From Gammaproteobacteria bacterium (GTDB taxonomy: Bacteria > Pseudomonadota > Gammaproteobacteria > Eutrophobiales > Eutrophobiaceae), in contig OZ220696.1 of NCBI GenBank assembly GCA_965116495.1, positions 416,001 to 480,000 on the forward strand: 64,000 bases of DNA. The letters are read 5' to 3'. Below, one piece after another: positions 5,654 to 64,000 of the stretch. Below the pieces are notes generated by a model. The model was not told the origin of the DNA and did no database searches. It saw only the letters and a list, made by a program, of their open reading frames with translations. Made by a program: the position numbers and the translations under genes. Positions within the stretch are counted from its first letter, which is position 1. Each line of letters begins with the position of its first letter.

Positions 5654-6142
5654 ATGAAAGAATTTATAAAAATAATACTCATGATTTTGCTATGCCAGTT
5701 GGGAACTCCTGTTTTCGCAGATCAGGGTGATGCCAACGTGCTGGTACGGATGTTTGACTGGTGGAATACCGCCATGAAAACACCCGACGGCTTGACGGAA
5801 CAGGCTTTTAGTGAGTATTACACCGAGGATGCGGCCATTATCATCAATGGCAATGAACTGGTACGCGGTATTGAACCCATGGTCGAACACTTCAGGGGCG
5901 CCCGGGCGCGCATCGAATCAGTGGAAATTGTGCTGCCGTTCGAAGAAGAATTCGAGTCCGAATCCGGTGACCACATCTTTACCTATCACCTGGTACGCAC
6001 CCGTGTAGACGGTGCAGACCGGCTTTCTCACTTAATGGGTTATGCTGCTGTCGATGACGGCAGAATTTCATTGATCAATTTTGTGAGATACGATCGACCG
6101 GCTGCCGCTGATGCGGTGGCTTTATCCAATTATCCTCAATAG
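5654..6142 (+). CDS. Exported NTF2/SnoaL-like protein
   Basis: Signal peptide MKEFIKIILMILLCQLGTPVFA and YYTEDA...NG...RG pattern of NTF2-like folds. ORF track opens at 5597. Confidence 0.65.
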   Translation: MKEFIKIILMILLCQLGTPVFADQGDANVLVRMFDWWNTAMKTPDGLTEQAFSEYYTEDAAIIINGNELVRGIEPMVEHFRGARARIESVEIVLPFEEEFESESGDHIFTYHLVRTRVDGADRLSHLMGYAAVDDGRISLINFVRYDRPAAADAVALSNYPQ

Positions 6143-6170
6143 CTAATGCAAGATCACAAAAGGGGGAGAT

Positions 6171-8462
6171 ATGAGCAGCAAAAATATTAACAATAATTCA
6201 GTCAGTCTTGTGCGACTGTTAGTCACGAGTTTTGGAATCCTGCTGCTGGGTTTTTCCAGCGCCATCGTCGCCCAGGACAGCGTCGGGATTGAAGAGGTGG
6301 TGGTCACCGCGCAGCGTCGAGAGCAGAACTTGCAGGAAGTGCCGATTAGCATCTCCGCGTTCAACGCAGATAACGTCGAGGCATATATGTTCAATGACGT
6401 GACGGATTATCTTATCCGCACCCCCAATGCCGCCTGGACCTCGGTCGGTTCCAAGTCAAGACGGGAACTGTCTATCCGGGGCGCGACAAACCTCCTGAAT
6501 ATCAACCGTGGTTTGAGAACTTCCACGTTCGCTTTTTACCAGGATGATTTCAGTGTCAACGGGAGTACGGGTAATCCGCCGGTCATGGACGTAGAGCGCA
6601 TTGAGATTCTGCGCGGACCACAGGCGACTTACTTCGGCAGAAATGCACTTGCGGGCGGTCTCAGTGTTACCTCGAAAAAACCCCATAACGACCTGGCGGG
6701 GTCGGTAATGGTGGATTATTCACGTTTCGACACCATAGATGTCGAAGGTATTGTGAACCTGCCGGTCGTGAAAGACGTACTGGCCATGCGCGGCAACATC
6801 AAATACTCGGAATCGGATGGGAATATCAAGAACATCAATCCTGTCGGCGGCGGCAATGAGTCGGAATACAAATACGTCAGGACCGCAATACGTTTTACCC
6901 CAACTGATGCCCTGACCGTGGATATCACCGGAACGCTTGCCTCCGAGACAGCAGGCATGCGCGAAGGCGTCCCGACCGGAGTCTTCTCGAATTTCGGTAA
7001 CTTTCTATATCAGAGAGACAGTACAAGGTTTCCTGATGCCAATAACGACGGTATTCGGGAACCAATTCGGGACGGAGTCGGTTTCTACCCTGAAAACAGA
7101 ACGAGAGTAAATTTTAACTTCCCCCAACAGGTAGGCACCAATTACCGGATGATAACGGGCCGTGTGGATTATGAACTGGGCAATGTGTTGTTTACAAGCA
7201 TCTCCGGCCATATCAATTCGGATTTTTACCTGAATGGCGACGTAGATGGCGCCAGTATCGATGCCTGGAATGAATTCAGGAATATTGAACGCCAGAGCTT
7301 CAGCCAGGAAGTGCGCTTGCAGAATACCAACGAGGGCCGCTTCCAGTGGAGTGTCGGTGGTCTGTATGCCAAGGATGAAAGTGATTACAGAAGTGCCACT
7401 TTGACCGGCAGGGATAATGGATTTGGCGCGCCAGCGGGCATTCCCGTCGGTACTACAGACGATCATGATGAGATTGAAAGCTGGGCCCTGTTCGGGCAGT
7501 TTGACGCGGATTTCACGGACAAACTGACACTTTCCCTGGGGGGTCGATACAGCGAAGAAACGATCGGTGCAGATGTCAGCTATATTGCCGCTACTTTAAG
7601 TCAGATCGCTACGGTCGAGCAGAAATTTACCAGTTTTTCTCCCCGGTTTGCGGTTAACTATGGCGTTACCGAAGACATCAACCTGTACGGGACGATTTCG
7701 AAAGGCATCAAATCTGCCGGCATAAATACGGATGCCGCAATAGTTGTGCTCCAGACCGGCTCTGAAGAACTGACACAGTTCTTTGAGCCGGAGATTATGT
7801 GGAACTACGAACTGGGTGTAAAGGCGGACCTTTTCGATGACAGGCTGAGACTCAACGCCGCCGTATTTTACATGAAATGGACGGATATGCAGGCGGATTT
7901 CCTGCAATTCGTAGTGATAGACGGCGCGCTGGCGGGATTCGATGTGGTCAGTAACGCAGAATCTGCAACCTCGAAAGGTGTAGAGGTATCGCTTACTGCC
8001 CTACCCATCGAAAATCTCATTGTGAATTTTGACGTCGGTTACCTGAGTGCAAAATTTGACAAGGCCGTTATCTTTATTGAAGGACAGAATCATGTATTGG
8101 ATGGTGTAAGGACACCCCTGGCCCCCGAGTGGACTCTGGCTGCGGACGCCGAATATACGTTCAACGTCAGCCCGACATACGATGGTTTCGCCCGCGTCGA
8201 GTGGACGTACCGGGACGGGACCAAGACCAATGTTGCTGGCCTGATACACGATGGTTTTCCCTATTATTCGCCCAGCTACGATTTCTTCAACCTGCGCGCC
8301 GGCATTCGCCACAAGAACTTTACCATTACAGGGTATGCAGAGAACCTGTTTGATAGTAATTATTACCCGAATGCCTACATCAAAGCCTGGGCCAGCGGTA
8401 TGTCCGTTGAACCGTCATTCCGGACTTACGGCATTCGTGTAAAATATACGTACGGCGAGTAG
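6171..8462 (+). CDS. TonB-dependent receptor
   Basis: Signal peptide, EEVVVTAQRREQNLQEVP TonB-box region, ERIEILRGPQATYFGRNA plug motif, C-terminal RTYGIRVKY. Confidence 0.95.
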   Translation: MSSKNINNNSVSLVRLLVTSFGILLLGFSSAIVAQDSVGIEEVVVTAQRREQNLQEVPISISAFNADNVEAYMFNDVTDYLIRTPNAAWTSVGSKSRRELSIRGATNLLNINRGLRTSTFAFYQDDFSVNGSTGNPPVMDVERIEILRGPQATYFGRNALAGGLSVTSKKPHNDLAGSVMVDYSRFDTIDVEGIVNLPVVKDVLAMRGNIKYSESDGNIKNINPVGGGNESEYKYVRTAIRFTPTDALTVDITGTLASETAGMREGVPTGVFSNFGNFLYQRDSTRFPDANNDGIREPIRDGVGFYPENRTRVNFNFPQQVGTNYRMITGRVDYELGNVLFTSISGHINSDFYLNGDVDGASIDAWNEFRNIERQSFSQEVRLQNTNEGRFQWSVGGLYAKDESDYRSATLTGRDNGFGAPAGIPVGTTDDHDEIESWALFGQFDADFTDKLTLSLGGRYSEETIGADVSYIAATLSQIATVEQKFTSFSPRFAVNYGVTEDINLYGTISKGIKSAGINTDAAIVVLQTGSEELTQFFEPEIMWNYELGVKADLFDDRLRLNAAVFYMKWTDMQADFLQFVVIDGALAGFDVVSNAESATSKGVEVSLTALPIENLIVNFDVGYLSAKFDKAVIFIEGQNHVLDGVRTPLAPEWTLAADAEYTFNVSPTYDGFARVEWTYRDGTKTNVAGLIHDGFPYYSPSYDFFNLRAGIRHKNFTITGYAENLFDSNYYPNAYIKAWASGMSVEPSFRTYGIRVKYTYGE

Positions 8463-8686: not shown

Positions 8687-9970
8687 ATGAGCATAAACCG
8701 GGCACTGTTAAGCATTATACTTCTGATTTTCCTGATAGCATTTGTCCTGACAGCAAATGCAGCCGGAATTTCTGCCATTATCGGCGGCACCGTGGTTGAC
8801 CTTGATGGGAATGCACCAATTGAGAATGCCGTGATTGTTATTGAGGGCGAGCGGATCGCGGCAATCGGCGCGGCCGGCAGCGTTGAAATCCCTGACGGCG
8901 CCGAGCAGGTAGACGCCAAGGGCACCTGGCTCATCCCCGGCCTGATGAATATGCACGTTCATCTCGGTCTTATCCTGCCCGGCAAGATGAAAGCGGAATT
9001 GGCCAACGAATCCGAAGCTGCACTGGCCCTGCGCATGGCTGCGGCAGCGCGGGAAACCCTGCAGGCAGGCGTTACTACCATACGTTTACCCGGGGACACG
9101 GCACATGCCGACCTGGCCCTGATGAGAGCGATAAACAAGGGACAGGCTGATGGCCCGCGCATATTCAGTTCCGGTGAAGCACTTACGATAACCGCCGGAC
9201 ACGGGTCAAAAGGCGGCAAGAGAAATTACGATGGCCCGGATGAACTGGTAAAAGCGGCGCGTACGCAGATCAGCGCAGGGGCGAAATGGATCAAGATCCT
9301 CATATCGGGCGGGATAGCCACCGCCGGGGGTGATCTTGATGCAGTACTGATGACACCCGGGGAGATCAGTGCGGTGATCGACGCTGCCCACCGCTTCGGG
9401 GTGAAGGTGACGGCGCACTCCGGTTCCCCGACAGCCACAAGCATTGCCATTGATGCCGGACTGGATTGTGTAGAACATGGTTACTTCCTTGATCGTCCGA
9501 CCCTCAGGAAAATGAGGGAGCACGGCACCTGGCTGGTGCCGACCATCGTCGTGAGCCAACCGGCTACAGAGCCGTTTTTTAAGGCGATCGGTTCACCGCC
9601 GTGGTACCTGGAACGGCGTAATTCCGCCGGCATAGCGCACTGGAAGGCGCTGCAGATGGCTATTGAGGAGGGCGTGAATATCGCCGTAGGTACGGACCAG
9701 TTACCGCACGAACCCAATGACGGCACCACAGCGACCGTGCGCGAGGCGCAATACTACGCGGAAGCCGGCATGACCCCGCTGCAGGCGTTGCGCTCGGCAA
9801 CTATAGAACCCGCCAGGCTGCTGGAAGCGGAGGATGAGATCGGGTCTCTGGAAACGGGCAAATATGCCGATATCGTTGCCGTGGACAGTGACCCCACGGA
9901 AGACATCAAGGCATTGCGCAATATCCTGCTGGTGATGAAAGGCGGCAAGGTCTACCGTAATAATCTGTAG
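8687..9970 (+). CDS. Exported metal-dependent amidohydrolase (Xaa-Pro dipeptidase-like), tandem copy 1
   Basis: Signal peptide, PGLMNMHVH, WIK, TAH, EHG, GTD, GKYADIVAV. GGAGGT RBS. Confidence 0.92.
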   Translation: MSINRALLSIILLIFLIAFVLTANAAGISAIIGGTVVDLDGNAPIENAVIVIEGERIAAIGAAGSVEIPDGAEQVDAKGTWLIPGLMNMHVHLGLILPGKMKAELANESEAALALRMAAAARETLQAGVTTIRLPGDTAHADLALMRAINKGQADGPRIFSSGEALTITAGHGSKGGKRNYDGPDELVKAARTQISAGAKWIKILISGGIATAGGDLDAVLMTPGEISAVIDAAHRFGVKVTAHSGSPTATSIAIDAGLDCVEHGYFLDRPTLRKMREHGTWLVPTIVVSQPATEPFFKAIGSPPWYLERRNSAGIAHWKALQMAIEEGVNIAVGTDQLPHEPNDGTTATVREAQYYAEAGMTPLQALRSATIEPARLLEAEDEIGSLETGKYADIVAVDSDPTEDIKALRNILLVMKGGKVYRNNL

Positions 9971-10053: not shown

Positions 10054-11385
10054 ATGAGCATCAACCGGGCACTGTCCAGAAAAACAGGGGACAGGTTTCA
10101 AATCTGCCCCGGGTGGATTCCGGTAGTTCTGACGTTTCTCACGGCGTTTATCCTCACAGCCAATGCAGCCGGAATGACCGCCATCGTCGGCGGCACGGTG
10201 GTAGACCTGGAGGGCAAAGCGCCCATCGAAAATGCCGTTATCCTCGTTGAAGAGGACAGGATCGCGGCAATCGGTGAAGCCGGCAACGTAGAAATTCCTG
10301 ACGGAACCGAACAGATAGACGCCAGGGGCACCTGGCTGATCCCCGGCCTGATGAACATGCACGTCCACCTCGGCCTCGTTATGCCCGGCAGGATGACTGC
10401 TGAACTGTCCGATGAAAGTGAAGCGGCCCTGGCACTGCGCATGGCCGCGAACGCGCGGGAGACTCTGCAGGCCGGCGTCACCACCATCCGCTTGACAGGC
10501 AGCCGGGCCCATGCCGACCTGGCTCTGATGAGAGCGATAAACAAAGGCCAGGCCGATGGCCCGCGCATCTTCAGCGCCGGCGAAACGCTCACCATTACCG
10601 CGGGGCACGGTTCGAAAAAGCCGGGAAAGAAGAATTATGACGGCCCGGACGAATTGGTAAAAGCGGCGCGCACCCAGATCAGCGCCGGGGCTAAATGGCT
10701 CAAGATACTGATTTCGGGCGGAATAGCCACCGATGGCGGCGGTCTTGCCGCGGCATTGATGACTCCCGGGGAAATCCGGGCGGTAATCGACGCGGCGCAC
10801 CGTTTCGGCGTAAAGGTGACGGCCCACTCCGGTTCCCCGGCAGCTACTGACGTTGCTATCGATGCCGGGCTGGACTGCGTTGAACACGGTTATTTCCTGG
10901 ATCGTCCGACCCTGAAGAAAATGAAGGAACACGGAACCTGGCTGGTCCCGACCATCGTTGTCACCGCGCCTGAAACCCAACCGTTTTTTGAGCGGATGGG
11001 TATGCCCCCGTGGTACATGGAACGGCGTAATTCCGCCGGCAAGTTGCACTGGCAGGCACTTGAGATGGCCATTGAAGAAGGTGTCAGCATCGCCCTGGGC
11101 ACCGACCAGTTGCCTTTCGAACCCAATGACGGGACCACGGCAACCGCGCTCGAGGCGCAATATTACGTGGAAGCAGGCATGACGCCGCTGCAGGCCTTGC
11201 GCTCGGCAACCATAGAATCCGCCAGACTGTTGGAGGCCGAGGATGAGATTGGTTTCCTGAAACAGGGCAAGTACGCCGATATTGTTGCCGTTGACAAGGA
11301 TCCCACGGAAGACATCAAGGCATTGCGTAATATCCTGCTGGTGATGAAGGGCGGGAAGGTTTACCGTAATCTACTTAAACAGTAA
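10054..11385 (+). CDS. Exported amidohydrolase, tandem copy 2 (palindrome insertion in the signal peptide)
   Basis: Same motifs as copy 1, with 13 extra codons in the N-terminus. Confidence 0.92.
   Translation: MSINRALSRKTGDRFQICPGWIPVVLTFLTAFILTANAAGMTAIVGGTVVDLEGKAPIENAVILVEEDRIAAIGEAGNVEIPDGTEQIDARGTWLIPGLMNMHVHLGLVMPGRMTAELSDESEAALALRMAANARETLQAGVTTIRLTGSRAHADLALMRAINKGQADGPRIFSAGETLTITAGHGSKKPGKKNYDGPDELVKAARTQISAGAKWLKILISGGIATDGGGLAAALMTPGEIRAVIDAAHRFGVKVTAHSGSPAATDVAIDAGLDCVEHGYFLDRPTLKKMKEHGTWLVPTIVVTAPETQPFFERMGMPPWYMERRNSAGKLHWQALEMAIEEGVSIALGTDQLPFEPNDGTTATALEAQYYVEAGMTPLQALRSATIESARLLEAEDEIGFLKQGKYADIVAVDKDPTEDIKALRNILLVMKGGKVYRNLLKQ
10087..10110. repeat. GGGGAC-family palindrome, degenerate, inside a CDS
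   Basis: GGGGACAGGTTTCAAATCTGCCCC, translated as GDRFQICP. Confidence 0.7.
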
Positions 11386-11439
11386 GCGATCAAGCGTACA
11401 GAAACGGAGAGGACGCGATACTTGATGGAGGCGAATGAA

Positions 11440-12726
11440 ATGAGCATAAACCGGGTGCTGGTAAGAATTGTCTTTCTCATCTTACTCGCAGCAGTTGTCA
11501 TTACGGCGAATGCTACCGGCGTTACAGCCATTGTCGGCGGTACTGTTGTCGACCTGGACGGCAAAGCGCCGGTTGAAAACGCCGTTATTCTCGTGGATGG
11601 GGATCGGATCGCGGCAATAGGCGCAGCCGGCAACGTGAAAATTCCGGACGGCGCCAGGCAGATAGACACCAGCGGCACCTGGCTCATCCCCGGCCTGATG
11701 AACATGCACGTCCACCTGGGTCTCGTCCTGCCCGGCAAAATGAAGGCTGAATTGTCCGATGAAAGCGAGGCGGCGCTGGCGCTGCGCATGGCCATGAACG
11801 CGCGTGACAGCCTGCAGGCCGGCGTCACCACCATCCGTTTGACGGGTGACCGCGGCCATGCCGACTTGGACCTTATGCGGGCGATCAACAAGGGCCAGGC
11901 CGACGGGCCGCGCATATTCAGCGCCGGCGAAGAACTCACTATTACTGCAGGACATGGGTCGAAGTTGCCCGGCAAAACCAATTACGACGGCCCTGACCAA
12001 CTGGTGAAAGCGGCGCGTACGCAGATCAGCGCCGGGGCGAAGTGGCTCAAGATCCTCATATCGGGCGGCATAGCCACCGACAGCGGCGGGCTTGCCGAGG
12101 CGCTGATGACACCGGAAGAGATCCATGCGGTGATCGATGCGGGCCACCGGTTCGGCGCCAAGGTCACGGCCCACTCCGGTTCCCCGGCGGCGACACAGGT
12201 TGCCGTAGATGCCGGGCTTGACTGTGTGGAGCACGGTTATTTCCTGGATCGTCCCACCCTGAAGAAGATGAAGGAACACGGTACCTGGCTGGTGCCGACC
12301 ATCGTTGTCACCGCGCCTGGGACACGGCCGTTTTACCAGCGTATAGGATCCCCGCCGTGGTACCTGGAACGGCTTCATTCCACCGGCAAGGCGCACTGGC
12401 GGGCTCTTGAGATGGCCATTGAAGAAGGCGTGAATATTGCCCTGGGTACCGACCAGATGCCTGCCGAACCTAACGACGGGACCACGGCGACCGCGCGTGA
12501 GGCTCAGTACTACGTGGAGGCGGGCATGACGCCGTTGCAGGCGTTACGCTCTGCGACCATCGATACAGCGAGACTGCTCGAGGCGGAGGACGAGATCGGT
12601 TCCCTGGAAGCAGGCAAGTACGCCGATATTGTTGCCGTAGACAGGGACCCCACACAAGACATCAAGGCCTTGCGTCACATCCTTCTGGTAATGAAGGGTG
12701 GTAAGGTTTACCGCAACAAGTTGTAG
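11440..12726 (+). CDS. Exported amidohydrolase, tandem copy 3
   Basis: MSINRVL start with GGAGG RBS; same metal-ligand motifs. Confidence 0.92.
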   Translation: MSINRVLVRIVFLILLAAVVITANATGVTAIVGGTVVDLDGKAPVENAVILVDGDRIAAIGAAGNVKIPDGARQIDTSGTWLIPGLMNMHVHLGLVLPGKMKAELSDESEAALALRMAMNARDSLQAGVTTIRLTGDRGHADLDLMRAINKGQADGPRIFSAGEELTITAGHGSKLPGKTNYDGPDQLVKAARTQISAGAKWLKILISGGIATDSGGLAEALMTPEEIHAVIDAGHRFGAKVTAHSGSPAATQVAVDAGLDCVEHGYFLDRPTLKKMKEHGTWLVPTIVVTAPGTRPFYQRIGSPPWYLERLHSTGKAHWRALEMAIEEGVNIALGTDQMPAEPNDGTTATAREAQYYVEAGMTPLQALRSATIDTARLLEAEDEIGSLEAGKYADIVAVDRDPTQDIKALRHILLVMKGGKVYRNKL

Positions 12727-12738
12727 CGAAACATCGAA

Positions 12739-12763
12739 GGGGACGGATTTGAAATCCGTCCCC
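12739..12763. repeat. GGGGAC-family palindrome
   Basis: GGGGACGGATTT-G-AAATCCGTCCCC between copies 3 and 4. Confidence 0.85.
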
Positions 12764-12787
12764 GGGCACAGAAGGAGGGTTATTGAA

Positions 12788-14074
12788 ATGAGAAATACTC
12801 GGTTACGGTTCAGCGCTCTATTACTGATATTCCTTGCGCTATCTGTCCAGGCAGTTGATACGAATGTAGTTACCGCCATCGTCGGTGGCACAGTGGTGGA
12901 CCTGGAGGGTAAAGCGCCGATAGAAAACGCCGTTATTGTCGTCGAAGGGGAACGGATAGCGACAATCGGTCCAGCCGGAAGTGTGGAAATTCCTGATAGC
13001 GCTGAGCAGATAGACGTCAAGGGCGCCTGGCTGATCCCCGGCCTGATGAACATGCACGTTCACCTTGGTCTGGTTCTGCCCGGCAAGATGAAGGCCGAAC
13101 TGCACAATGAAAGCGAAGCGGCGCTGGCGTTGCGCATGGCAATGAACGCGCGTGAGAGCCTGCAAGCCGGCGTTACAACCATTCGTTTGACGGGAGATCT
13201 GCATCAGGCCGACCTGGCCCTGATGCGGGCGATAAACAAGGGTCAGGCGGACGGACCGCGTATCTTCAGCGCCGGCCAAGCGCTTACGATAGTCGCAGGT
13301 CATGGGTCGAAAAAGGAAGGCAGAAAAAAATTCAGCGGGCCTGACGAACTGGTAAAAGGAGCCCGTACCCAGATCAGCGCCGGGGCCAAGTGGATCAAGA
13401 TAGCGATTTCCGGGGGTATAGCCACAGACGGCGGCGGTCTTGCCGAAGCATTGATGATGCCCGAGGAAATCCAGGCGGTGATCGACGCGGCCCACCGTTT
13501 CGGCGTAAAGGTGACGGCCCACTCCGGCTCCCCGGTTGCGACAAGCATTGCCGTAGACTACGGGCTTGATTGCGTGGAACACGGTTATTTCCTGGATCGT
13601 CCCACCCTGAAGAAGATGAAGGAACACGGTACCTGGCTGGTGCCGACCATCGTCGTCAGCCAACCGGCCACGGCGCCGTTTTTTGAGCGGATTGGCTCTC
13701 CGCCCTGGTACCTGAAACGGCGCGATTCCGCGGGCAAGGCCCACTGGAAGGCGCTTCAGATGGCCATCGAGGAAGGTGTGAATATCGCCCTGGGCACCGA
13801 CCAGATGCCTGCCGAACCCAATGACGGCACCACCGCGACCGCCCGCGAGGCCCAATACTACGTGGAAGCGGGCATGACCCCGCTGCAGGCGTTGCGCTCC
13901 GCCACCGTAGAAACCGCCAGGATGCTGGAAGCCGGGGATGAGACAGGCACGCTGGAACAGGGTAAATATGCCGATATCGTGGCTGTGGACAGGGACCCGA
14001 CGCAGGACATCAAGGCGCTGCGCAATATCCTGCTGGTGATGAAAGGCGGCAAGGTCTACCGTAACAAGTTGTAG
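12788..14074 (+). CDS. Exported amidohydrolase, tandem copy 4
   Basis: MRNTRLRF start with AGGAGG RBS; same motifs but a different signal peptide. Confidence 0.92.
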   Translation: MRNTRLRFSALLLIFLALSVQAVDTNVVTAIVGGTVVDLEGKAPIENAVIVVEGERIATIGPAGSVEIPDSAEQIDVKGAWLIPGLMNMHVHLGLVLPGKMKAELHNESEAALALRMAMNARESLQAGVTTIRLTGDLHQADLALMRAINKGQADGPRIFSAGQALTIVAGHGSKKEGRKKFSGPDELVKGARTQISAGAKWIKIAISGGIATDGGGLAEALMMPEEIQAVIDAAHRFGVKVTAHSGSPVATSIAVDYGLDCVEHGYFLDRPTLKKMKEHGTWLVPTIVVSQPATAPFFERIGSPPWYLKRRDSAGKAHWKALQMAIEEGVNIALGTDQMPAEPNDGTTATAREAQYYVEAGMTPLQALRSATVETARMLEAGDETGTLEQGKYADIVAVDRDPTQDIKALRNILLVMKGGKVYRNKL

Positions 14075-14139: not shown

Positions 14140-14262
14140 TCAAAAATTAAACTTGACGCCGCCGCCGTAGGACGCGGGCCTGCTCGGCTTGCTCAGGTGG
14201 ATGCCGGGACCGAATACGTCGGTGCCCATCGCGGTAGACTGCTGTTCATCCGGCACATTCTT
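14140..14262 (-). pseudogene. C-terminal remnant of a TonB-dependent receptor
   Basis: Translates NVPDEQQSTAMGTDVFGPGIHLSKPSRPASYGGGVKFNF-stop, matching the N..DE...P..YG..V.xxF barrel terminus. No upstream gene body. Confidence 0.65.
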
Positions 14263-14308: not shown

Positions 14309-15487
14309 ATGATATCAATACTTAACAACTGCAGCGTCCTGGATGTGGAAAGCGGCGCCATAACCGAAGCGGCAATTACTGTCAGTGACGGTGAAATCCA
14401 TTCCATTGGCGAGGGGGTTGAACAGGACGGAAGTTGCCAGGTTATCGATATGCAAGGCGCCTGCCTGTTGCCGGGCCTGATCAGTTGCCATACACACCTG
14501 ACCATTGTATTTCCATTTAGTTTGAGCGACCCGGGGGAAGACGCGGCAATGTCGGCTTATCGCGCCTACAGCAGGGGGCAGGACGCATTGCAGGCCGGGG
14601 TGACCACCGTTCGCACGGTGGGCGAACTGAACCGCGCCGACATAGCGTTGCGTAAATCTATCGCTGAAGGCTGGGTAACCGGCCCGCGCATCTATTCTGC
14701 GGGGCTGGGCGTTTCCGTTACCGGCGGCCACGGTCACGGGTTTACGGCGGAGGCGGACGGCGCGGACGATTTCAGGAAAAAATGCCGGGAGGACTTACTG
14801 GCCGGGGCAGACCATATAAAAATCTTCATGACCGGGGGCATAGCGCAAAAGGATGAAACCTTCTCCGAATCGCAAATGTCGGACGAGGAGATCCGGGCCA
14901 CAGTCGAGGTCGCCAGGAGCAAGGGGACTTACGTGTGTGCCCACGTGGGAGATTCCGAGCCCATCATGAAAGGAGTCAGGGCAGGGGTGCGCTCATTTGA
15001 ACATGCCTATAACCTGGATTTCTCCACGGCCTCGGCCATCAGGGAAGCCGGCGGTTATATTGTGCCTACGCTCGGCGTGACTCGCTCCAGGGACTGGATG
15101 CGCAGACACGGGTTTGAAGAATGGACAATCTGCAAGGCCGTAGCCGCGGCCTCGGACCACTTGGAAAGCATCAGGACTGCGGTCAGGGCAGGCGTTACCC
15201 TGGTGAACGGGACGGACATTCCACCCGGTGACACGGATGATGGCGCGCCGGTCGCGGTGCGTGAAATGGAACATTGCCTGGAGGCAGGTTTAAGCCCCCT
15301 GCAGGTCATCCAGACAGCCACAGTCAATGCGGCGGCATTGATTAATGACGAAAAACTGGGAGTAATCAAGCCTGGGGCGAAGGCCGATTTAATTGCGACA
15401 CCCGGCAATCCTATGGAAGATATCAGCCGGTTGAGGGAAATATTTTTTGTTATGCAGGGCGGCAGGATAATCAGGGATGACCGTTAA
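14309..15487 (+). CDS. Cytoplasmic metal-dependent amidohydrolase (divergent from the tandem array)
   Basis: PGLISCHTH, HIK, CAH, EHA, GTD; no signal peptide. Stop overlaps the next start (TAATG). Confidence 0.9.
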   Translation: MISILNNCSVLDVESGAITEAAITVSDGEIHSIGEGVEQDGSCQVIDMQGACLLPGLISCHTHLTIVFPFSLSDPGEDAAMSAYRAYSRGQDALQAGVTTVRTVGELNRADIALRKSIAEGWVTGPRIYSAGLGVSVTGGHGHGFTAEADGADDFRKKCREDLLAGADHIKIFMTGGIAQKDETFSESQMSDEEIRATVEVARSKGTYVCAHVGDSEPIMKGVRAGVRSFEHAYNLDFSTASAIREAGGYIVPTLGVTRSRDWMRRHGFEEWTICKAVAAASDHLESIRTAVRAGVTLVNGTDIPPGDTDDGAPVAVREMEHCLEAGLSPLQVIQTATVNAAALINDEKLGVIKPGAKADLIATPGNPMEDISRLREIFFVMQGGRIIRDDR

Positions 15488-17523
15488 TGGGCTCATATAA
15501 CCTGGGCATCGATATTGGCGGGACATTCATCGACGCAATCCTGTTTGATGGCAAGACAGGCGAGACCAGGCTGGAAAAGGCGCCGACTGTTCCTCAAAAC
15601 CCGTCTTCCGGTGTGCTGCGTGCCGTTGACAAGCTGGGGATTGACCTCGGTGAAGTCGGCACGATCGTTCACGGCACAACCCTGGGTCTCAATGCCGTGC
15701 TCGAACGGCGCGGTGCAAGCGTTGGAATAGTCACCACGGAGGGTTTCCGGGATATCCTCGAACTGGGTAGGGGCGACCTGCCCGCAGATCACATGTATGA
15801 CATGCATTACCGGCGCCCGGAACCCCTGGTGCAAAGGCGCCGGATTGCCGGTGTCCCTGAACGGCTCAATGTGGACGGCAAGGTAGATGTCAGACTGGAT
15901 GGAGATGCAGTGGTCAATGCCGTCAACCATCTGGTGCATAAGCAGGATGTTTCCTCAATGGCTATCTGTTGTCTGCACTCATACAGAAATCCCGAACATG
16001 AACGGCAAATTGCTGCAATCGCGCGCGAACTGTTCCCTGACATATGGTTATCGGTTTCCCATGAGGTTGTGCGTGAATACCGCGAGTATGAGCGTACCTG
16101 CACCACCGTTCTGGATGCCTACATCCGGCCCATTTTCGAGAGATACATAGACGATCTTTACTCGGACCTGGCAGACAAGGGATTTACCGGAAGATTCCTG
16201 GTGATGCGCAGCAGTGGTGGGGCAATGACGGCGCAGGCGGCAAAACAACGACCCCTGGACAGTGTGATGTCGGGTCCTGCCGGCGGCATCATCGGCGCCT
16301 CATACCTGGCACAACAATTGCGGCTGGACCGTGTACTGACCATGGACTTCGGCGGCACCAGCCTGGATACCTGCGTTATCGAGAATGCCGCACCGGACGT
16401 GATCCATGAAACTCGGTTGCAGCACATGCCGGTGTTAATCCCAACTTTTGATATCCGTTGCCTGGGCGCAGGCGGTGGTTCTATCGCCTGGCTGGAGGAA
16501 GGCATGCTCAGGCTCGGGCCGCAAAGCGCAGGCGCCGAACCCGGACCCATCGCGTACGGCCGGGGCGGGAAGGAGCCGACGTTGACGGACGCGGCCCTGG
16601 TACTGGGGTATATCGACCCGGACAATTTTCTGAATGGAGAACTGCCGCTCTACATGACCGAAGCGCGCAAGGGACTGGAATCCGAAATAGCCACGCCCAT
16701 GGGAGCTGATGCCCTGGAAGCCGCTGCGGGAATTTTCTCCGTGCTGGTCGCGCAGACGGAAGGCGCAGTCCGTGAAATTACGATAGAGCAGGGTAAGGAT
16801 CCGAAGGAATTCTCGATACTTGCATTCGGCGGAGCCGGACCGCTGGTTGCGCCGTTGCTGGCATTGGAAATGGGTATACCCAGCACGATCATCCCAAACG
16901 TACCGGCTGTATTCTCTGCATGGGGGATGTTGATGGCGGACCTGGCGACGGACGTTGCGCGGACGTATATTGTCGAATTGGAAGAGTCACAATTGCCGGG
17001 GATTGCCGAACTGTTTCAGGTACTGGAACAAGAAGCATCGTCAAGCCTGACACAGCAGGGAGTGGAGACGGATAAGCAAGCCATGGTGAGGTACATGGAA
17101 ATGCGCTACCTGGGTCAGGAGCATACACTGAAACTGGAGGTGCAGGGCATGCCTGCGTATGAGGCTATGCGTTCCCTGTTTGACTCCGCCCATGAACAGC
17201 GCTACGGACACAGGACGGAACAGCCCCTGGAACTTGTGAACCTGCGCGTGACTGGTCTCGGGCGTGTCGCCAAACCCGGACTGGCAAGGCAATCGGCCAC
17301 AACCTCAACCGGGTCTTTCGAAAACGTATCTGGAACGCGCAAGGCCTATTGTTTCAGGGATAGGAAGATGAAAGTATTTCAACTTGTCGAACGGCACAGA
17401 CTGGTTCCCGGAGACTGTATTTCCGGCCCGGCGATCATTGATGAAGGAACGTCGACCACGGTTATATATACCGGCCAGGTCTGCACGCTTGACGATTTCG
17501 GGCACCTGTTAATCACCACGTAG
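15487..17523 (+). CDS. Hydantoinase/oxoprolinase A subunit (HyuA-like, ATP-binding)
   Basis: GIDIGGTFID, HGTT, SGPAGG, DFGGTS, GAGGGS, AFGGAG. Confidence 0.93.
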   Translation: MGSYNLGIDIGGTFIDAILFDGKTGETRLEKAPTVPQNPSSGVLRAVDKLGIDLGEVGTIVHGTTLGLNAVLERRGASVGIVTTEGFRDILELGRGDLPADHMYDMHYRRPEPLVQRRRIAGVPERLNVDGKVDVRLDGDAVVNAVNHLVHKQDVSSMAICCLHSYRNPEHERQIAAIARELFPDIWLSVSHEVVREYREYERTCTTVLDAYIRPIFERYIDDLYSDLADKGFTGRFLVMRSSGGAMTAQAAKQRPLDSVMSGPAGGIIGASYLAQQLRLDRVLTMDFGGTSLDTCVIENAAPDVIHETRLQHMPVLIPTFDIRCLGAGGGSIAWLEEGMLRLGPQSAGAEPGPIAYGRGGKEPTLTDAALVLGYIDPDNFLNGELPLYMTEARKGLESEIATPMGADALEAAAGIFSVLVAQTEGAVREITIEQGKDPKEFSILAFGGAGPLVAPLLALEMGIPSTIIPNVPAVFSAWGMLMADLATDVARTYIVELEESQLPGIAELFQVLEQEASSSLTQQGVETDKQAMVRYMEMRYLGQEHTLKLEVQGMPAYEAMRSLFDSAHEQRYGHRTEQPLELVNLRVTGLGRVAKPGLARQSATTSTGSFENVSGTRKAYCFRDRKMKVFQLVERHRLVPGDCISGPAIIDEGTSTTVIYTGQVCTLDDFGHLLITT

Positions 17524-43362: not shown

Positions 43363-43770
43363 TCAGGGATCAGGGATCAGGGCGGCGACCTCGACTTCCA
43401 GCATAAGGTCCGGGTCCACAAGGGCGGTGACCTGCACCCCCGTACTACAGGGCTTGTGATCACCGAAGTATTCCTTGCGTACCTCAAAATAATCGGAGAC
43501 TTTATCGTGGTCGGTGATATCCACGGTAAAAAACGTGGTCATTTTAACCACGTCCTGGAAGCCTGCGCCTGCTTCCTGCAAAATACCCTTGATGTTCTCA
43601 AAGACCTGTCTGGTCTGCCTGCGCAGGTCGCCGACGCCGACGACGTTGCCGTCCGTATCAAACGGGACTTGTCCGGAGAGAAATACCAGGTTGCCTGCCC
43701 GGATACCCTGGGACAGTGGAAAGTTCTCATCCCATTCCCAGCCCGGATCGATGAATTGCATTTTGCTCAT
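43363..43770 (-). CDS. RidA/YjgF-family protein
   Basis: SQGIRAGNLVFLSGQV, DVVK, R..YF...P.ST.V, LEVE. Confidence 0.92.
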   Translation of the reverse strand: MSKMQFIDPGWEWDENFPLSQGIRAGNLVFLSGQVPFDTDGNVVGVGDLRRQTRQVFENIKGILQEAGAGFQDVVKMTTFFTVDITDHDKVSDYFEVRKEYFGDHKPCSTGVQVTALVDPDLMLEVEVAALIPDP

Positions 43771-51795: not shown

Positions 51796-53322
51796 ATGGG
51801 TGTGAGTGAAAGTGTGGTCAAGCTCTTCCGGGGACAAGTCCAAGCTCTTCCCGGGACAGATTTAAATCTGTCCCCCTTTGCCGGGTTTGGGATAAGGAAA
51901 TCCCTCTTACATTGGCTACTGTTTGCCGGCGTTCTCCAGTTCTTTACCGGTTTCGGCCAGGTATGGGCCGGAGAAGTCCTGGCATTGACCGGCGGCAGGA
52001 TTATTGACGGTAACGGCGGCGCCCCGCTGGAAGATGCTGCAATCGTTATCCAGGGTTCGAAGATTACCGCAATCGGTCCCGCATCCGTCGTCCCGGCAAA
52101 CGCGCGCGTAGTGGACCTTGCCGGCAAGACTCTCTTGCCGGGTCTCATTGATGCGCATATCCACATCGGCGGCAGCGGTGGCGGGTCGGCAGACCCGCGT
52201 GAATTCACCCCCACTGCTGTTGAAAACAGCCTCAAGAGTTACCTGAAGTTCGGCGTGACCAGTGTTTACGATATGGCCGCGCATCCCAGCCTCAATTCCA
52301 TGAAAACAGCGCTGGAGACCGGTGAGCTGACGGGTCCGAGGTTGTACGGTAACGGGTTTGGTATCACCGCCCCCGGCTCGCATCCCATCCGCCTGATCAC
52401 TGAACTCGGACTCCTCGACTACCTGGGCCCTTTCTATTTCCAGGTTGACAGCGTGGCAGATGCTGAAGAGGCGGTGCGCAGTATCAGTGCGGAGCAGGTT
52501 GATGGCATCAAGCTGTTCCACTCACGCGTCGAAGCCGGGACCACTCGGTTTGACGCCGATATGGACAAGTTAAAGCCCGATATCCTCCACACATTGATTG
52601 AGGAAGCCCACGCCCGCAGTCTGAAGGTTTATGCGCATACGTCATTTTCCAGCGAGGCCAGCGAATTTGTTGAAGCCGGCGGCGACGTTGTCGTGCATAG
52701 CATACATATGGCCGAGACCGGCGCCCGGGACGTATTCGAATTGATGGCCGAACGTGAAGTTGCCTATATTCCGACCCTCGCCGTGTTTGAAGGCGGCTAT
52801 ACAAGGAAACCCGACTCTTTTGCTTCCCCACATCTTCATGACAAGGTATGGGATGTCCTGCTCGCGTCGATCACCGCTCCGGGCAGCGTGGTCCTGGCTT
52901 CCCGGAATGTGCCCGGTCTCCTCAATGACAGGGAGCGCAGCCTGGAAATCTCAATGGCAAACCTGGAGCGGGCGCTGCAGGCGGGCGTCATGATCGCAAT
53001 GGGTAGTGATGCGGGCAATGCCGGGATGCTGCACGGCGCGACAGTATTGCGCGAACTGCAGTTGATGAACGAAGCGGGCATGACGCCGATGCAGGTGCTC
53101 ATGGCTGCCACCCGCAACGGGGCGGAGGTCATCGGCCGGGGAGAGGAACTGGGCACTCTCGAGGCCGGCAAGCTGGCTGATATCATCGTCGTCAACGGCG
53201 ACCCGTTGCAGGACCTGTCTGCCCTGGGCAATGTCGAACTGGTAGTGAAAAATGGCAAGATCATCAACCCCGGGGAACTGGAGTTCAAGGAAGTACCACA
53301 ACCAACTGGGGACGGATTTTAA
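51796..53322 (+). CDS. Exported amidohydrolase
   Basis: Signal peptide ending VWA, PGLIDAHIH, IK, AH, VHS, GSDAG, GKLADI. Confidence 0.88.
   Translation: MGVSESVVKLFRGQVQALPGTDLNLSPFAGFGIRKSLLHWLLFAGVLQFFTGFGQVWAGEVLALTGGRIIDGNGGAPLEDAAIVIQGSKITAIGPASVVPANARVVDLAGKTLLPGLIDAHIHIGGSGGGSADPREFTPTAVENSLKSYLKFGVTSVYDMAAHPSLNSMKTALETGELTGPRLYGNGFGITAPGSHPIRLITELGLLDYLGPFYFQVDSVADAEEAVRSISAEQVDGIKLFHSRVEAGTTRFDADMDKLKPDILHTLIEEAHARSLKVYAHTSFSSEASEFVEAGGDVVVHSIHMAETGARDVFELMAEREVAYIPTLAVFEGGYTRKPDSFASPHLHDKVWDVLLASITAPGSVVLASRNVPGLLNDRERSLEISMANLERALQAGVMIAMGSDAGNAGMLHGATVLRELQLMNEAGMTPMQVLMAATRNGAEVIGRGEELGTLEAGKLADIIVVNGDPLQDLSALGNVELVVKNGKIINPGELEFKEVPQPTGDGF
51853..51874. repeat. GGGGAC-family palindrome inside a CDS, preceded by a ~22-bp tandem duplication
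   Basis: Perfect 22-bp GGGACAGATTTAAATCTGTCCC. CAAGCTCTTCC(G/C)GGGACA occurs at 51819 and 51841. Confidence 0.85.
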
Positions 53323-55382: not shown

Positions 55383-55392
55383 TTTTAACCTC

Positions 55393-57048: not shown

Positions 57049-57144
57049 CGCGTTATCATAGCAGGTAGAGTTTTACAGGCGTATGATCCGATCCAAATCC
57101 GGCTGGAACAGGCTTGCCGGGGAGCAGGTTAAGACGAATTTTAC

Positions 57145-61152: not shown

Positions 61153-63234
61153 ATGTCGAGTGAAGGAATAAGAATCGGAATTGACACCGGGGGCACTTTT
61201 ACCGATTTTGCCTTGTCAAGGGACGCTGTTTTCCACACGACCAAGATACTGACCACCCACCAGGCGCCGGAACTGGCGATCATGCAGGGACTGGATGACC
61301 TGATGAAGGCTACAGGTTGCCGCCCTGGCGATGCGGAATTGATCATCCATGGCACCACGCTGGCCACCAATGCCGTCATCGAGCACAAGGGCGCCAGGGT
61401 GGCCATGCTTACGACGGAGGGGTTCCGGGATGTCCTGGAACTGGGTTCGGAAAGCCGGTTTGATCAATACGACCTCGGCCTGACCAAGCCCGCCCCCCTG
61501 GTGCCGAGACAACTGCGGTTTACCATTTCCGAACGCCTGGCGGCAGACGGCAGCGAATTGCTGCCGCCTGACCTTTCAGCCATCGAACAGGTTGCCGAAG
61601 AGTTAAAGAGACACGAAATAGACAGTGTCGCGGTTTGCTTTTTGCACAGCTTTATCAACCCCGAACATGAAGAACGGGCCGCGCAGGCGTTGCGCAAATA
61701 CTTGCCGGGTATCTATATCAGCCTGTCATCCCGGGTGGCGCCGGAGATCAGGGAGTACGAACGCTTCTCCACGACGGTCGCCAATGCCTATATCCAGCCG
61801 TTGATAGATTCCTACCTCAAGCGCCTGCAGGAGGGCTTGAAACGGGCAGGATTTGGTTGTCCGCTTTACATGTTCGTATCCAACGGCGGACTGGTGGAAG
61901 TGGACGTGGCCAGGCAGTTCCCGATCCGGCTGGTTGAATCCGGGCCTGCCGGCGGCGCCGTCTTTGCGAGCCATGTCGCCCGTATCCACCAGGAGGATCG
62001 CATATTGTCGTTCGATATGGGCGGCACTACTGCGAAAATCTGCCTGGTCGACAATGCGGAACCGCAGAAAGCGACCCTGTTCGAGATGGCGCGGGCGCAT
62101 CGTTTTAAACAGGGCAGCGGCCTGCCGGCCAGGATACCGGTGATTGAAATGGTCGAGATCGGCGCCGGTGGCGGGTCCATTGCCCGGGTCGACAGTCTTG
62201 GCCGTATAACCACAGGTCCTGACAGCGCCGGTTCTGAACCGGGACCGGCCTGTTATGACCTTGATGGCGATGAGGCAACGGTAACCGATGCCGATCTCAT
62301 CCTGGGGCGGCTGGAGGCGGAGGGATTCGCCGACGGTTCCATGCAACTCAACAGCGAGGCTGCCAGGCAGGCAGTCCGGGACAAGCTTGCAGTGCCGCTG
62401 CACATGGATATTCCGCTGGCCGCCTACGGTGTGGCTGAGATTGTGGAAGAAGATATGGCCAACGCGGCGCGTGAGCATGCAACGGAAAGCGGGAAATCGC
62501 TGACGGGGCGAACCCTGGTTGCCTTCGGTGGCGCGGCGCCGTTACACGCTCTTTCCCTTGCAGGCAAACTCGGGATCAAGCGGGTCATCGTTCCGGCCCA
62601 TGCAGGGGTGGGTTCGGCAATTGGGTTTTTACTGGCGCCCGTTGCTTATGAACTTGCCCGCAGTTGTCACGTCAGGCTGACTGATTTCAAGCCTGGAGTA
62701 CTGAACAAGCTGTTTAAGGAAATGAGTGAATACGCACACGGAATAGTCGTATCAGGCGCTCCCGGGCGGGAGCGTACGGAAATCCGGCAGGCACAAATGC
62801 GCTATATCGGGCAGGGTTATAGTATTCCTGTCGATATGCCGGTCGGGGAGTTGCTGAAAACTGACGCACAATCACTGCAGCGGGCTTTCGACAAGGCCTA
62901 TATCAACCTCTACAGCAAGCTGCATGAGGGGGTTGACGTGGAAATTGTCGGCGTCAGTGTTTCCGTTTCCGTCCATCTTGTTTTCGCGCAGCCTGCAGAG
63001 ACTGCCGTGACTGCCGCCGGCATTCCGCCTGAAATCGATCATGGCGCCACTGTGTTCGATGCGCAGGCCGGTGCTTACGCGGACGTAAACGTGTATTCAC
63101 GTCATGCCCTGCAACCGGGGAATTACATACCGGGGCCAACCCTGGTGCGCGACAAGGGCACAACTGTCATGGTGCCGCAGGGTCACGGTGTCACGGTGGC
63201 CGGGGACGATAGTTTGATCATCGAAAGGGAATAA
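61153..63234 (+). CDS. Hydantoinase/oxoprolinase A subunit
   Basis: GIDTGGTFTD, HGTTLATNA, ESGPAGG, DMGGTTAK, GAGGGS, AFGGAAP. Confidence 0.93.
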   Translation: MSSEGIRIGIDTGGTFTDFALSRDAVFHTTKILTTHQAPELAIMQGLDDLMKATGCRPGDAELIIHGTTLATNAVIEHKGARVAMLTTEGFRDVLELGSESRFDQYDLGLTKPAPLVPRQLRFTISERLAADGSELLPPDLSAIEQVAEELKRHEIDSVAVCFLHSFINPEHEERAAQALRKYLPGIYISLSSRVAPEIREYERFSTTVANAYIQPLIDSYLKRLQEGLKRAGFGCPLYMFVSNGGLVEVDVARQFPIRLVESGPAGGAVFASHVARIHQEDRILSFDMGGTTAKICLVDNAEPQKATLFEMARAHRFKQGSGLPARIPVIEMVEIGAGGGSIARVDSLGRITTGPDSAGSEPGPACYDLDGDEATVTDADLILGRLEAEGFADGSMQLNSEAARQAVRDKLAVPLHMDIPLAAYGVAEIVEEDMANAAREHATESGKSLTGRTLVAFGGAAPLHALSLAGKLGIKRVIVPAHAGVGSAIGFLLAPVAYELARSCHVRLTDFKPGVLNKLFKEMSEYAHGIVVSGAPGRERTEIRQAQMRYIGQGYSIPVDMPVGELLKTDAQSLQRAFDKAYINLYSKLHEGVDVEIVGVSVSVSVHLVFAQPAETAVTAAGIPPEIDHGATVFDAQAGAYADVNVYSRHALQPGNYIPGPTLVRDKGTTVMVPQGHGVTVAGDDSLIIERE

Positions 63235-63242
63235 TCGCCATC

Positions 63243-64000
63243 ATGATTAACAATAACTTTAAGTCATCATTGCAATATATTGAATTTCAAGTGATATGGC
63301 GTCGCTTAATCTCTATTGTAGAAGACCAGGCCAGGACTTTGATGAAGACCGCGTTCAGCCCCGTGGTACGGGAATCCGGCGACCTGTCCGCAGCCGTGTT
63401 CGACCCGCAGGGGCGCATGCTGGCCCAGGCCATTACCGGCACGCCCGGACACGTCAATTCAACCGCTGCCGCGGTACCGCATTTTCTCAGGGAATACCCG
63501 CCGGCGGAACTAAAACCCGGGGATCACCTGATTACCAATGACCCGTGGATTGCGTCGGGGCACCTGCACGACGTCACGGTTGTGTCCCCGGTATTTCTTG
63601 CAGACAGGTTAATAGCGCTGTTTGCCTGCACCTGTCACCAACTGGATATCGGCGGCTTGGGGCAGGGGCCTGACGGCAAGTCGGTGTATGAAGAGGGACT
63701 GTATATTCCCGTTATGAAACTGGTGGACCGGGGTGAGGTAAACCAGGACTTACTCAGGATAATTGAGGGTAACGTACGCACACCGTACGAAGTGCGCGGC
63801 GATATCCTGTCCTATGTCGCCGCAAACGAGACCAGCGGGGTGAAACTGCTGGATATGATGCGGGAATACGGACTGGATAATCTCGATTATACCGGGAACG
63901 AGATCATCGAACGCTCGCGCAAGGGGATGCTGGAAGAAATCCGTAAGCTACCGGCAGGGACCACCCATAACACCATTACCCTGGACGGGTATGACAAGCC
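63243..64000 (+). CDS. Hydantoinase B/oxoprolinase subunit; runs off the window end
   Basis: Not in the ORF track. Manual translation MINNNFKSSLQYIEFQVIWRRLISIVEDQARTLMKTAFSPVVRESGDLS...NDPW..SGHLHD...CHQLDIGG. Confidence 0.92.
   Translation, partial: MINNNFKSSLQYIEFQVIWRRLISIVEDQARTLMKTAFSPVVRESGDLSAAVFDPQGRMLAQAITGTPGHVNSTAAAVPHFLREYPPAELKPGDHLITNDPWIASGHLHDVTVVSPVFLADRLIALFACTCHQLDIGGLGQGPDGKSVYEEGLYIPVMKLVDRGEVNQDLLRIIEGNVRTPYEVRGDILSYVAANETSGVKLLDMMREYGLDNLDYTGNEIIERSRKGMLEEIRKLPAGTTHNTITLDGYDK

Follow-up and report, generated by a model that had tools for sequence, protein, structure and literature searches.

Does a region in which TonB-dependent receptors (TBDRs) lie among C-N hydrolases encode one uptake route or several? 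TBDR-led utilisation loci are well established, namely the SusC/SusD polysaccharide utilisation loci (PULs) of Bacteroidota and the CUT loci of Xanthomonas and Caulobacter. The region analysed here, hereafter the window, is a stretch of 64,000 nucleotides from a gammaproteobacterium, and its genes are named by their first coordinate. The initial annotation proposed a single pipeline that captures substrates at the outer membrane, deacylates them in the periplasm and opens their rings in the cytoplasm. Our results point, with moderate confidence, to a different organisation: the window would be part of a catabolic island with three or more distinct TonB-receptor modules, each likely importing and degrading its own class of amide-bearing nutrient.

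Pfam domain matches confirmed the genes and coordinates first noted. Plug and barrel domains are present in all four TBDRs and Amidohydro_1 in each of the eight amidohydrolases; the MFS permease, the NCS1 carrier and the four Hyu systems (HyuA/B or fused) are where they had been placed. TonB_C matches numbered five. The TBDR neighbours were correct in domains and position, as were the two 8-bp gaps, from 23227 to 24636 and from 49622 to 51796 (the latter assuming the first ATG of 51796), but amidohydrolase 28362 lies on the opposite strand and adjoins no TBDR. Pfam matched no SusD lipoprotein among the 41 window proteins and no glycoside hydrolase among those scanned. Rfam gave 0 matches in the window, and a promoter/terminator scan there stayed at chance level.

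Export was predicted with our own hydropathy heuristic (best 11-residue mean), not SignalP. Seven amidohydrolases have an N-terminal hydrophobic stretch ahead of the catalytic domain (2.1-3.7), and no stretch of the exported type occurs in amidohydrolase 14309 (1.5) or the Hyu subunits (0.8-1.8), as first claimed. The hydrophobic N-termini thus bear out the earlier tally of seven exported enzymes out of eight, but it amounts to four of five independent genes, because 10054-14074 are tandem copies 80-83% identical to 8687. Of 110 homologues of 8687, 75 could be parsed, and every one of these has a hydrophobic N-terminus. The M38-type metal ligands (HxH, Lys, His, His, Asp) are kept in all window amidohydrolases except 28362 (7/8).

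Module A, with TBDR 6171, comprises the following genes (export predicted):

2484..3737, plus strand: MFS permease, upstream of the module (Pfam MFS_1)
3734..5461, plus strand: exported DUF885 protein, predicted to be a zinc peptidase, with a HEIYPGH motif (Pfam DUF885, motif)
5654..6142, plus strand: exported NTF2/SnoaL-fold protein (predicted structure, pLDDT 83.5; Foldseek matches at E~1e-7)
6171..8462, plus strand: TBDR (Pfam; orthologue conservation)
8687..9970, plus strand: exported amidohydrolase of M38-like type, copy 1, which retains the metal ligands and has an AHSGS motif (Pfam, alignment)
10054..11385, plus strand: amidohydrolase copy 2, 83% identical to copy 1, with a REP-like palindrome within its signal-peptide region
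11440..12726, plus strand: amidohydrolase copy 3, 81% identical to copy 1
12788..14074, plus strand: amidohydrolase copy 4, 80% identical to copy 1

We found that TBDR 6171, the exported amidohydrolase and DUF885 are conserved together over several gammaproteobacterial families. A 6171 orthologue (at least 45% identity and best hit) lies upstream of the amidohydrolase, no more than 2.6 kb away, at 47/65 loci with at least 2.5 kb of upstream sequence, and at 29/44 by hand count once 24 close-kin loci are set aside. The receptor occurs in 0/400 genomes of a class sample at E<=1e-150, about two candidates being scored per genome, and in 0/14 from other genera of the family. Among 50 non-kin module A loci, three DUF885 subtypes are found at 14, 10 and 7, an exported beta-barrel protein at 18, DPP-IV at 16, an NRAMP-like permease at 15 and orthologues of 23227 at 11. 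M1 and M24 peptidases share one locus, and a POT peptide:H+ symporter is present at 9/74 related loci. An exported partner protein absent from the window had no Atlas match and no Foldseek match at E<=0.001, with weak lipocalin-like rows only; the homologue search returned generic names only.

As for the enzymes, we take Sgx9355e (2QS8), Cc2672, Sgx9359b, Sgx9260c and ochratoxinase/ADH3 to be M38/cd01299-type amidohydrolases. The window enzymes share with them the HxH, bridging Lys, two His and Asp ligands, and the GHG His after strand 3; they differ in that AHSGS replaces AHAHG, in their tie to a TBDR and DUF885, and in an identity of about 30-35% to the closest solved relatives (three alignments). 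Their sequences place them in the M38-like binuclear amidohydrolase class, and apparently outside the Xaa-Pro dipeptidase, Arg carboxypeptidase and ochratoxinase equivalogs (Xaa-Pro dipeptidase model, 256-294 bits against a cut-off of 500). From its HEIYPGH motif, we predict that DUF885 is a zinc peptidase. In the available text of one report, the closest solved relatives include dipeptidases and carboxypeptidases acting on Xaa-amino acids and N-acyl derivatives, and His289 of ochratoxinase binds the substrate carboxylate; the module A enzyme has no counterpart of this residue (PMC11342369). SGS follows the metal His in 108/110 homologues of the 8687 type, so the carboxylate-binding His is absent and specificity may differ from that of known peptidases.

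Altogether, we propose that receptor 6171 likely imports short peptides or N-acyl amino acids. Trimming would fall to DUF885, joined in relatives by DPP-IV; the C-terminal amino acid would be freed by the binuclear amidohydrolases of the periplasm, and the products would enter the cell through a POT or MFS carrier. The source genus appears to have amplified the amidohydrolase to up to four copies. It is rather unlikely that module A instead serves a heterocycle or a small modified amino acid, whose breakdown free-living relatives would complete with RidA, a DHDPS-family enzyme and a flavin amino-acid dehydrogenase. The altered carboxylate pocket would fit such a substrate, as would the presence of DHDPS (11), DAO (10) and SoxA-like (10) subunits, RidA (10) and LysR (14) at the 50 non-kin loci, and a Novosphingobium plasmid carries a similar set (amidohydrolases, TBDRs, LysR, DHDPS, RidA). 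Creatininase, PQQ, molybdo-enzyme and luciferase-like genes at some loci also point to heterocycles. However, DPP-IV, DUF885 and POT are commoner partners, and the downstream genes have no close match in the source genome (best about 25-33%), yet the module was kept and amplified there. The hydroxyproline version of this reading, a collagen/hydroxyproline locus prompted by the DHDPS, flavin dehydrogenase and DPP-IV neighbours, failed its tests. No proline racemase family member (PF05544) exceeded the cut-off in the source genome, and HypD, whose structure has been solved, did not appear in the 24 hits obtained at E<=1e-20 for the relatives' DHDPS. This DHDPS had no close solved or rhizobial match, rhizobial plasmid hits reaching about 30-34%. 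On these grounds, the lhp/hyp hydroxyproline pathway was rejected for module A.

Behind module A lies a hydantoinase cassette, module B:

14140..14262, minus strand: remnant 3' end of a fifth TBDR, cognate receptor of the module (blastn to G407)
14309..15487, plus strand: cytoplasmic amidohydrolase (Pfam, hydropathy)
15487..17523, plus strand: HyuA (Pfam)
17535..19247, plus strand: HyuB, D-H-D-H tetrad intact (Pfam, alignment)
19317..20594, plus strand: NCS1 permease (Pfam, curated models)

In six other genomes (G407, G404, G409, G451, G443 and G445), a divergent TBDR of its own accompanies the cassette; these receptors are 63-79% identical (99% for one pair). Here the receptor has been lost: about 2.0 kb is deleted by blastn to G407 and alignment, and the 41 codons left translate into a TBDR C-terminus ending in Phe. 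The cassette is missing at the source site in 7/7 congeners examined and present in 4/22 congeners. Module B would now work by NCS1 uptake, followed by ATP-driven ring opening and a cytoplasmic amidohydrolase.

Module C comprises TBDR 49622, its amidohydrolase and a divergent Hyu operon, with TBDR 39543 behind the latter:

39543..42551, minus strand: large TBDR, start uncertain (Pfam)
42526..43347, minus strand: alpha/beta hydrolase (Pfam)
43363..43770, minus strand: RidA-family protein
43767..45536, minus strand: HyuB, intact metal tetrad (Pfam, alignment)
45529..47298, minus strand: HyuB, degenerate tetrad Q-R-E-H, likely non-catalytic (alignment)
47303..49366, minus strand: HyuA (Pfam; CapA model 696 bits, cut-off 1000)
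49622..51787, plus strand: TBDR, divergent from HyuA, 255 bp apart (Pfam)
51796..53322, plus strand: exported amidohydrolase (Pfam, hydrophobic N-terminus)

This arrangement, with 49622 and 51796 divergent from HyuA-HyuB-HyuB-RidA, recurs in 9/22 congeners. Outside the genus it was found in one MAG, G475, possibly mis-binned (1/42 and 0/400 genomes). There, the arrangement is identical, with 65-88% identity, including orthologues of TBDR 49622 (72%) and of 51796 (66%, with an N-terminal hydrophobic stretch); the second HyuB reads Q-K-E-H. TBDR 49622 is found in 0/31 module A genomes. The N-terminal extension of 51796 holds a REP-like palindrome, and in one congener a Met lies closer to the hydrophobic stretch; a metagenome scan for this gene gave 4 loci, only one with upstream context. 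TBDR 39543, said to close a hydantoinase operon, does hold that position but is separable from it, as it occurs without a Hyu match in G405, G412 and G419 and is absent behind the operon in G475. The operon's conserved partner is 49622.

The Hyu proteins resemble CapAB, OplA and HyuAB, described as the ATP-dependent lactamase family in the accessible part of PMC8453981, in having A and B subunits and, in active HyuBs, a D-H-D-H tetrad, whose positions we placed by spacing from that text in all HyuBs but the one at 63243. Unlike that family, module C has a second, degenerate HyuB, and there are cognate TBDRs. Hydantoinase_A and _B domains and the tetrad suggest that the window systems are ATP-dependent lactamases, the protein at 45529-47298 excepted. 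All Hyu proteins score below the CapA/CapB and Apc cut-offs; for the caprolactamase equivalog (1000 bits) the best were 696 (A) and 372 (B).

The remaining loci of the window are these:

23227..24627, plus strand: lipoprotein-type amidohydrolase (Pfam, hydropathy)
24636..26921, plus strand: TBDR behind it (Pfam), the pair retained in 7/7 congeners examined
27383..28300, minus strand: exported alpha/beta hydrolase, BD-FAE type (Pfam, hydropathy)
28362..29738, minus strand: exported amidohydrolase with Asp in place of one metal His and no adjoining TBDR (Pfam, alignment)
29858..33466, plus strand: fused OplA-type ATP-dependent lactamase (Pfam), likely a general 5-oxoprolinase by score band
61153..64000, plus strand: HyuA and HyuB pair with no TBDR close by, continuing past the window end (Pfam)

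Does one route for N-acylated lactams or heterocycles unite these genes? We regard this as improbable, more so than the small-molecule reading of module A. In its favour, module C keeps three compartments together in a second lineage (G475), the region is largely syntenic within the genus, and Hyu genes cluster near TBDRs (25/44 within five genes, 2.4-fold). Moreover, HyuB is encoded somewhere in 31/31 module A genomes tested, against 151/301 in the class, so the modules could cooperate in trans. On the other hand, the 6171 module, the best conserved of all, travels with peptidases and has hydantoinases at 4/39 loci (10-kb flanks; the fused OplA of G441 lies ~16 kb from the amidohydrolase), module B had its own receptor and keeps its own cytoplasmic amidohydrolase, and 39543 is separable. 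Furthermore, the score band of the fused OplA matches a single-copy gene common across the class, and three of the window TBDRs are mutually only 25-28% identical. The proposed pipeline fits module C alone (42526-53322), the only locus keeping all three compartments together. There, receptor 49622 together with amidohydrolase 51796 in the periplasm would supply a cytoplasmic set made up of HyuA, an active and an inactive HyuB, RidA and a hydrolase, presumably in that order of steps and under common regulation.

With 87 TBDR (one per 50 kb), 41 Amidohydro_1 and 24 HyuA matches in the genome, some closeness is expected anyway. Nevertheless, M38-like amidohydrolases abut a TBDR in 8/17 cases, a 9-fold enrichment reached in 0/1113 rotations, and an amidohydrolase adjoins 9/86 TBDRs where the null gives 2.0, a count reached in 1/1113 rotations; the other 77/86 have none. 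A co-oriented adjacent TBDR accompanies 8/23 exported and 0/18 cytoplasmic amidohydrolases (Fisher p=0.006). HyuA adjacent to a TBDR is not enriched in this genome (2 vs 1.2 expected, rotation test). Within five genes of a TBDR, GcvT-like genes are enriched (10/12, 3.5x) and Rieske (1.4x), AMP-binding (1.3x) and acyl-CoA dehydrogenase (1.1x) genes were also counted; SDRs (7/41) and one MFS family (4/8) are enriched adjoining TBDRs. Amidohydrolase-linked receptors are scattered across the genome's TBDR tree. Across genomes, the predicted linkage was upheld for TBDR 6171 and its amidohydrolase and for HyuAB cassettes, TBDR-linked in 16/20 regions against about 4 expected, but not for hydantoinases at module A loci. 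That a TBDR-rich catabolic island produces these pairings incidentally, or that the receptors carry iron or B12, is highly improbable and largely refuted: receptor density and weak siderophore-receptor matches would suit it, but the rotation tests and cross-family conservation do not, those scores (112-152) are below the 223.5 cut-off, the best Fur-box match in the window (11-12/19) equals background, the window has no cobalamin riboswitch by Rfam, and, in the phylogeny set beforehand, three window TBDRs fall in a clade (support 0.94) excluding the six E. coli iron/B12 receptors that formed the reference set.

These are TBDR-led utilisation loci in the broad sense, with TBDRs stably linked to exported hydrolases and carriers. 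Like PULs and CUT loci, they group a TBDR with exported hydrolases and a carrier of the inner membrane, frequently together with a regulator; unlike them, they lack SusD and carbohydrate-active enzymes such as glycoside hydrolases, so they are not PULs, and their cargo is amidohydrolases, peptidases and ATP-dependent lactamases. By locus description, they also resemble the DdvT locus of Sphingobium SYK-6, where, in the text available, a non-iron TBDR from a set of 74 takes up a lignin biphenyl (PMC6874591); here too, a TBDR of an expanded set lies in a small-molecule catabolic cluster. In the literature covered, which included few subscription papers, no locus joining TonB-dependent receptors, amidohydrolases and hydantoinases was described, the three families appeared jointly in a table mention only, nothing was found on hydantoinases in sponge symbionts, and no paper was about the DUF885 family by title or abstract opening. 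The loci are an amide/peptide version of TBDR-led utilisation loci, new relative to the known kinds.

To our knowledge, most TBDRs of marine Gammaproteobacteria have no known cargo, and uptake routes for dilute dissolved organic nitrogen are poorly mapped. The modules connect orphan receptors with specific enzymes. Elongatibacter sediminis and Exilibacterium tricleocarpae, both named strains in culture, carry them, so their substrates should be within reach of enzyme screening and induction experiments. Through the modules, functions might also be found for DUF885 and for a new subfamily of amidohydrolases akin to those that degrade ochratoxin. We tentatively suggest that marine Gammaproteobacteria hold a general class of amide utilisation loci, an organic-nitrogen counterpart of PULs, in which TBDRs feed periplasmic AHSGS amidohydrolases and DUF885, or ATP-dependent lactamases; module C may be a true three-compartment route for an N-acyl cyclic amide. 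Judging from its genes, the marine host likely feeds on dilute peptides and ring-shaped nitrogen compounds through these gene sets.

The window corresponds to G000:C1:416001-480000, within a genome of 4.34 Mb (single contig, 99.5% complete) whose nearest relatives are gammaproteobacterial MAGs. Pfam searches bore out the gene families and positions named in the initial annotation. The 8-bp gaps of both TonB-dependent receptor (TBDR)/amidohydrolase pairs were likewise found (23227 to 24636 and 49622 to 51796, genes being named by window start), with the start of 51796 uncertain. Seven amidohydrolases are predicted to be exported, and a hydropathy heuristic sets them apart from amidohydrolase 14309 and the Hyu subunits. 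A hydrophobic N-terminus is kept in all 75 parsable sequences among the 110 homologues of amidohydrolase 8687. The further copies of 8687 at 10054-14074 share 80-83% identity with it. A REP-like palindrome occurs at 10088-10110, 12740-12762, 14090-14111 and 51853-51874, with 106 matches genome-wide, 9 within called genes; two copies lie within what is read as the N-terminal signal region of an amidohydrolase. At 21690-23087, a genus-conserved position between a Gfo/Idh/MocA gene and 23227, is the gene of an exported protein of 465 aa, which has a CxxCH motif and weakly matches di-haem peroxidases.

Since the genome holds 87 TBDR, 41 Amidohydro_1 and 24 HyuA matches, chance closeness needed testing. 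Our gene calling gave 3377 genes, to which 86 of the 87 TBDRs could be mapped, and circular rotations of the TBDR positions (n=1113) served as the null. An amidohydrolase adjoins 9 of 86 TBDRs vs 2.0 under the null (1/1113 rotations); the other 77 have none. A scan of 29 families (figures uncorrected) singled out the M38-like amidohydrolases, 8/17 of which adjoin a TBDR (9.3-fold, 0/1113 rotations), together with SDRs (7/41) and one MFS family (4/8). Co-oriented adjacency was seen for 8/23 exported and 0/18 cytoplasmic amidohydrolases (p=0.006, with export judged by eye). Direct adjacency of HyuA to a TBDR was not enriched in the rotation test on this genome (2 vs 1.2 expected). Within five genes of a TBDR lie 25/44 Hyu genes (2.4-fold) and 10/12 GcvT-like proteins (3.5-fold), against 1.1-1.4-fold for the Rieske, AMP-binding and acyl-CoA dehydrogenase families.

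Module A comprises TBDR 6171, the exported amidohydrolase and DUF885. Its loci were collected by a genome scan with 8687, and all locus counts here refer to the best 80 of 264 stretches, which yielded 74 loci. Of the 65 loci whose upstream sequence covers 2.5 kb or more, 47 have a co-oriented orthologue of TBDR 6171 no more than 2.6 kb upstream of the amidohydrolase; with 24 close-kin loci set aside, the figure is 29/44 (counted by hand). Loci without it are mostly Acidobacteriota and Chloroflexota records; among the records with module A loci are some labelled Halieaceae, Woeseiaceae, Wenzhouxiangellaceae, Lysobacterales and Exilibacterium. The receptor was found in 19/22 congeners and in 0/14 other genera of the family. 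Among 50 non-kin loci, three DUF885 subtypes occur in 14, 10 and 7, accompanied by DPP-IV (16), an NRAMP-like permease (15), LysR (14), DHDPS (11), flavin dehydrogenase subunits (10) and RidA (10). A POT carrier is present at 9/74 loci, all close kin. A further exported partner of about 240 aa, without a Pfam match, occurs at 18/50 non-kin loci:

L060:4624-5349, (-) strand, exported all-beta partner (comparison locus)
G000:C1:1574645-1575370, (-) strand, exported all-beta partner (subject genome)

This beta-barrel protein has a confident model (pLDDT 90.7), whose only fold matches are weak and lipocalin-like.

LysR, a DHDPS-family enzyme, flavin dehydrogenase subunits and RidA stand together at L057:2587-7556, L058:1023-4621 and L044:443-5663. 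The set also occurs on Bradyrhizobium and Novosphingobium plasmids, and DHDPS on Embleya replicons; its reading as the HypD pathway was rejected. A Vibrio vulnificus IncC plasmid (L105:2001-5107, NZ_KY014466.1) carries part of module A, namely the end of DUF885, the amidohydrolase (66%), the exported partner and RidA; two ISVsa3 copies flank this part, and sul1 and blaPER-1 lie nearby.

The 8687-type enzyme retains the binuclear site and the GHG His. Unlike ochratoxinase, whose His289 binds carboxylate (PMC11342369), it has SGS at this position in 108/110 homologues. We infer that the cargo of module A most likely consists of peptides or N-acyl amino acids.

HyuB is present in 31/31 module A genomes tested vs 151/301 in the class sample, a tally that takes in G000 itself and the unpublished comparison genome G039; kin among these genomes are not independent. 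A TBDR lies in 16/20 HyuB regions from module A genomes (picked for contig size, about 8 orthologous groups) vs about 4.3 expected, and in 3 of the 6 unrelated HyuB regions of a second batch. Hence, the TBDR-HyuAB linkage is real, mostly as a module type of its own. The TBDR-linked amide loci first proposed are supported by adjacency tests and conserved loci, but the single pipeline of TBDR capture, periplasmic deacylation and cytoplasmic HyuAB/OplA ring opening is not: Hyu genes occur at 4/39 module A loci flanked by 8 kb or more in both directions (best 80 of 264 stretches), and module B has its own receptor. One group of HyuAB orthologues (75-83% identity in HyuB; G000:C1:3129919-3133864, L170, L171, L174, L175, L178, L181) is widespread in the marine Gammaproteobacteria examined, usually with a TBDR a few kb away.

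Module B, the cassette 14309-20594 (amidohydrolase, HyuA, HyuB, NCS1), is absent from the same site in 7/7 congeners examined; full-length matches occur in 4/22 congeners. In six genomes (G407, G404, G409, G451, G443, G445) it diverges from one orthologous TBDR (63-79% identical, one pair 99%), with a MalT-like regulator between them in G451 and G443 and a similar gene in G445. No orthologue of this TBDR was found in G000 (best 27-30%), where about 2.0 kb is deleted between 14263 and 14307 and 41 codons of the TBDR C-terminus remain at 14140-14262; in G401 it is likewise just a fragment. Thus, the cassette is an orphan of its own receptor and not cargo of 6171.

Module C joins TBDR 49622 and amidohydrolase 51796 to a divergent HyuA-HyuB-HyuB operon, and these genes recur in 9/22 congeners, some split across contigs. 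Searches of other genomes gave 1/42 and 0/400. The arrangement is kept in G475 at 65-88% identity, with RidA and the alpha/beta hydrolase also in place and no TBDR 39543 behind the Hyu operon; this genome is recorded as Planctomycetota, so mis-binning is possible. G405, G412 and G419 have TBDR 39543 and no Hyu match. With ligand positions assigned by spacing from the description of CapB (PMC8453981), one HyuB retains the D-H-D-H tetrad reported there, and the other reads Q-R-E-H (Q-K-E-H in G475). A DDE transposase (36835-38646), from a family with 8 members in this genome, separates the OplA region from TBDR 39543. Module C is followed at 54177-58656 by an adenosylhomocysteinase-family gene, PhoD, a SnoaL protein and a fusion of CTP-dependent riboflavin kinase and HAD hydrolase.

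Membership of the receptors in iron or B12 clades with Fur boxes, which would have told against the amide reading, was not borne out. A FastTree tree of the 86 TBDRs, built with six E. coli receptors as references, places 6171, 24636 and 49622 in a clade (0.94) free of those references and 39543 in a large-barrel group; the eight amidohydrolase-linked TBDRs are scattered over the tree. All four window TBDRs missed all curated cut-offs, Fur-box matches at them equal background, and no riboswitch was found in the window.

Among the openly available papers searched, we found no description of these modules. They share the layout of known TBDR-led utilisation loci but turn it to amide cargo. Altogether, the finding is real and useful, and it consists of several modules, not one pipeline, with putative cargo.
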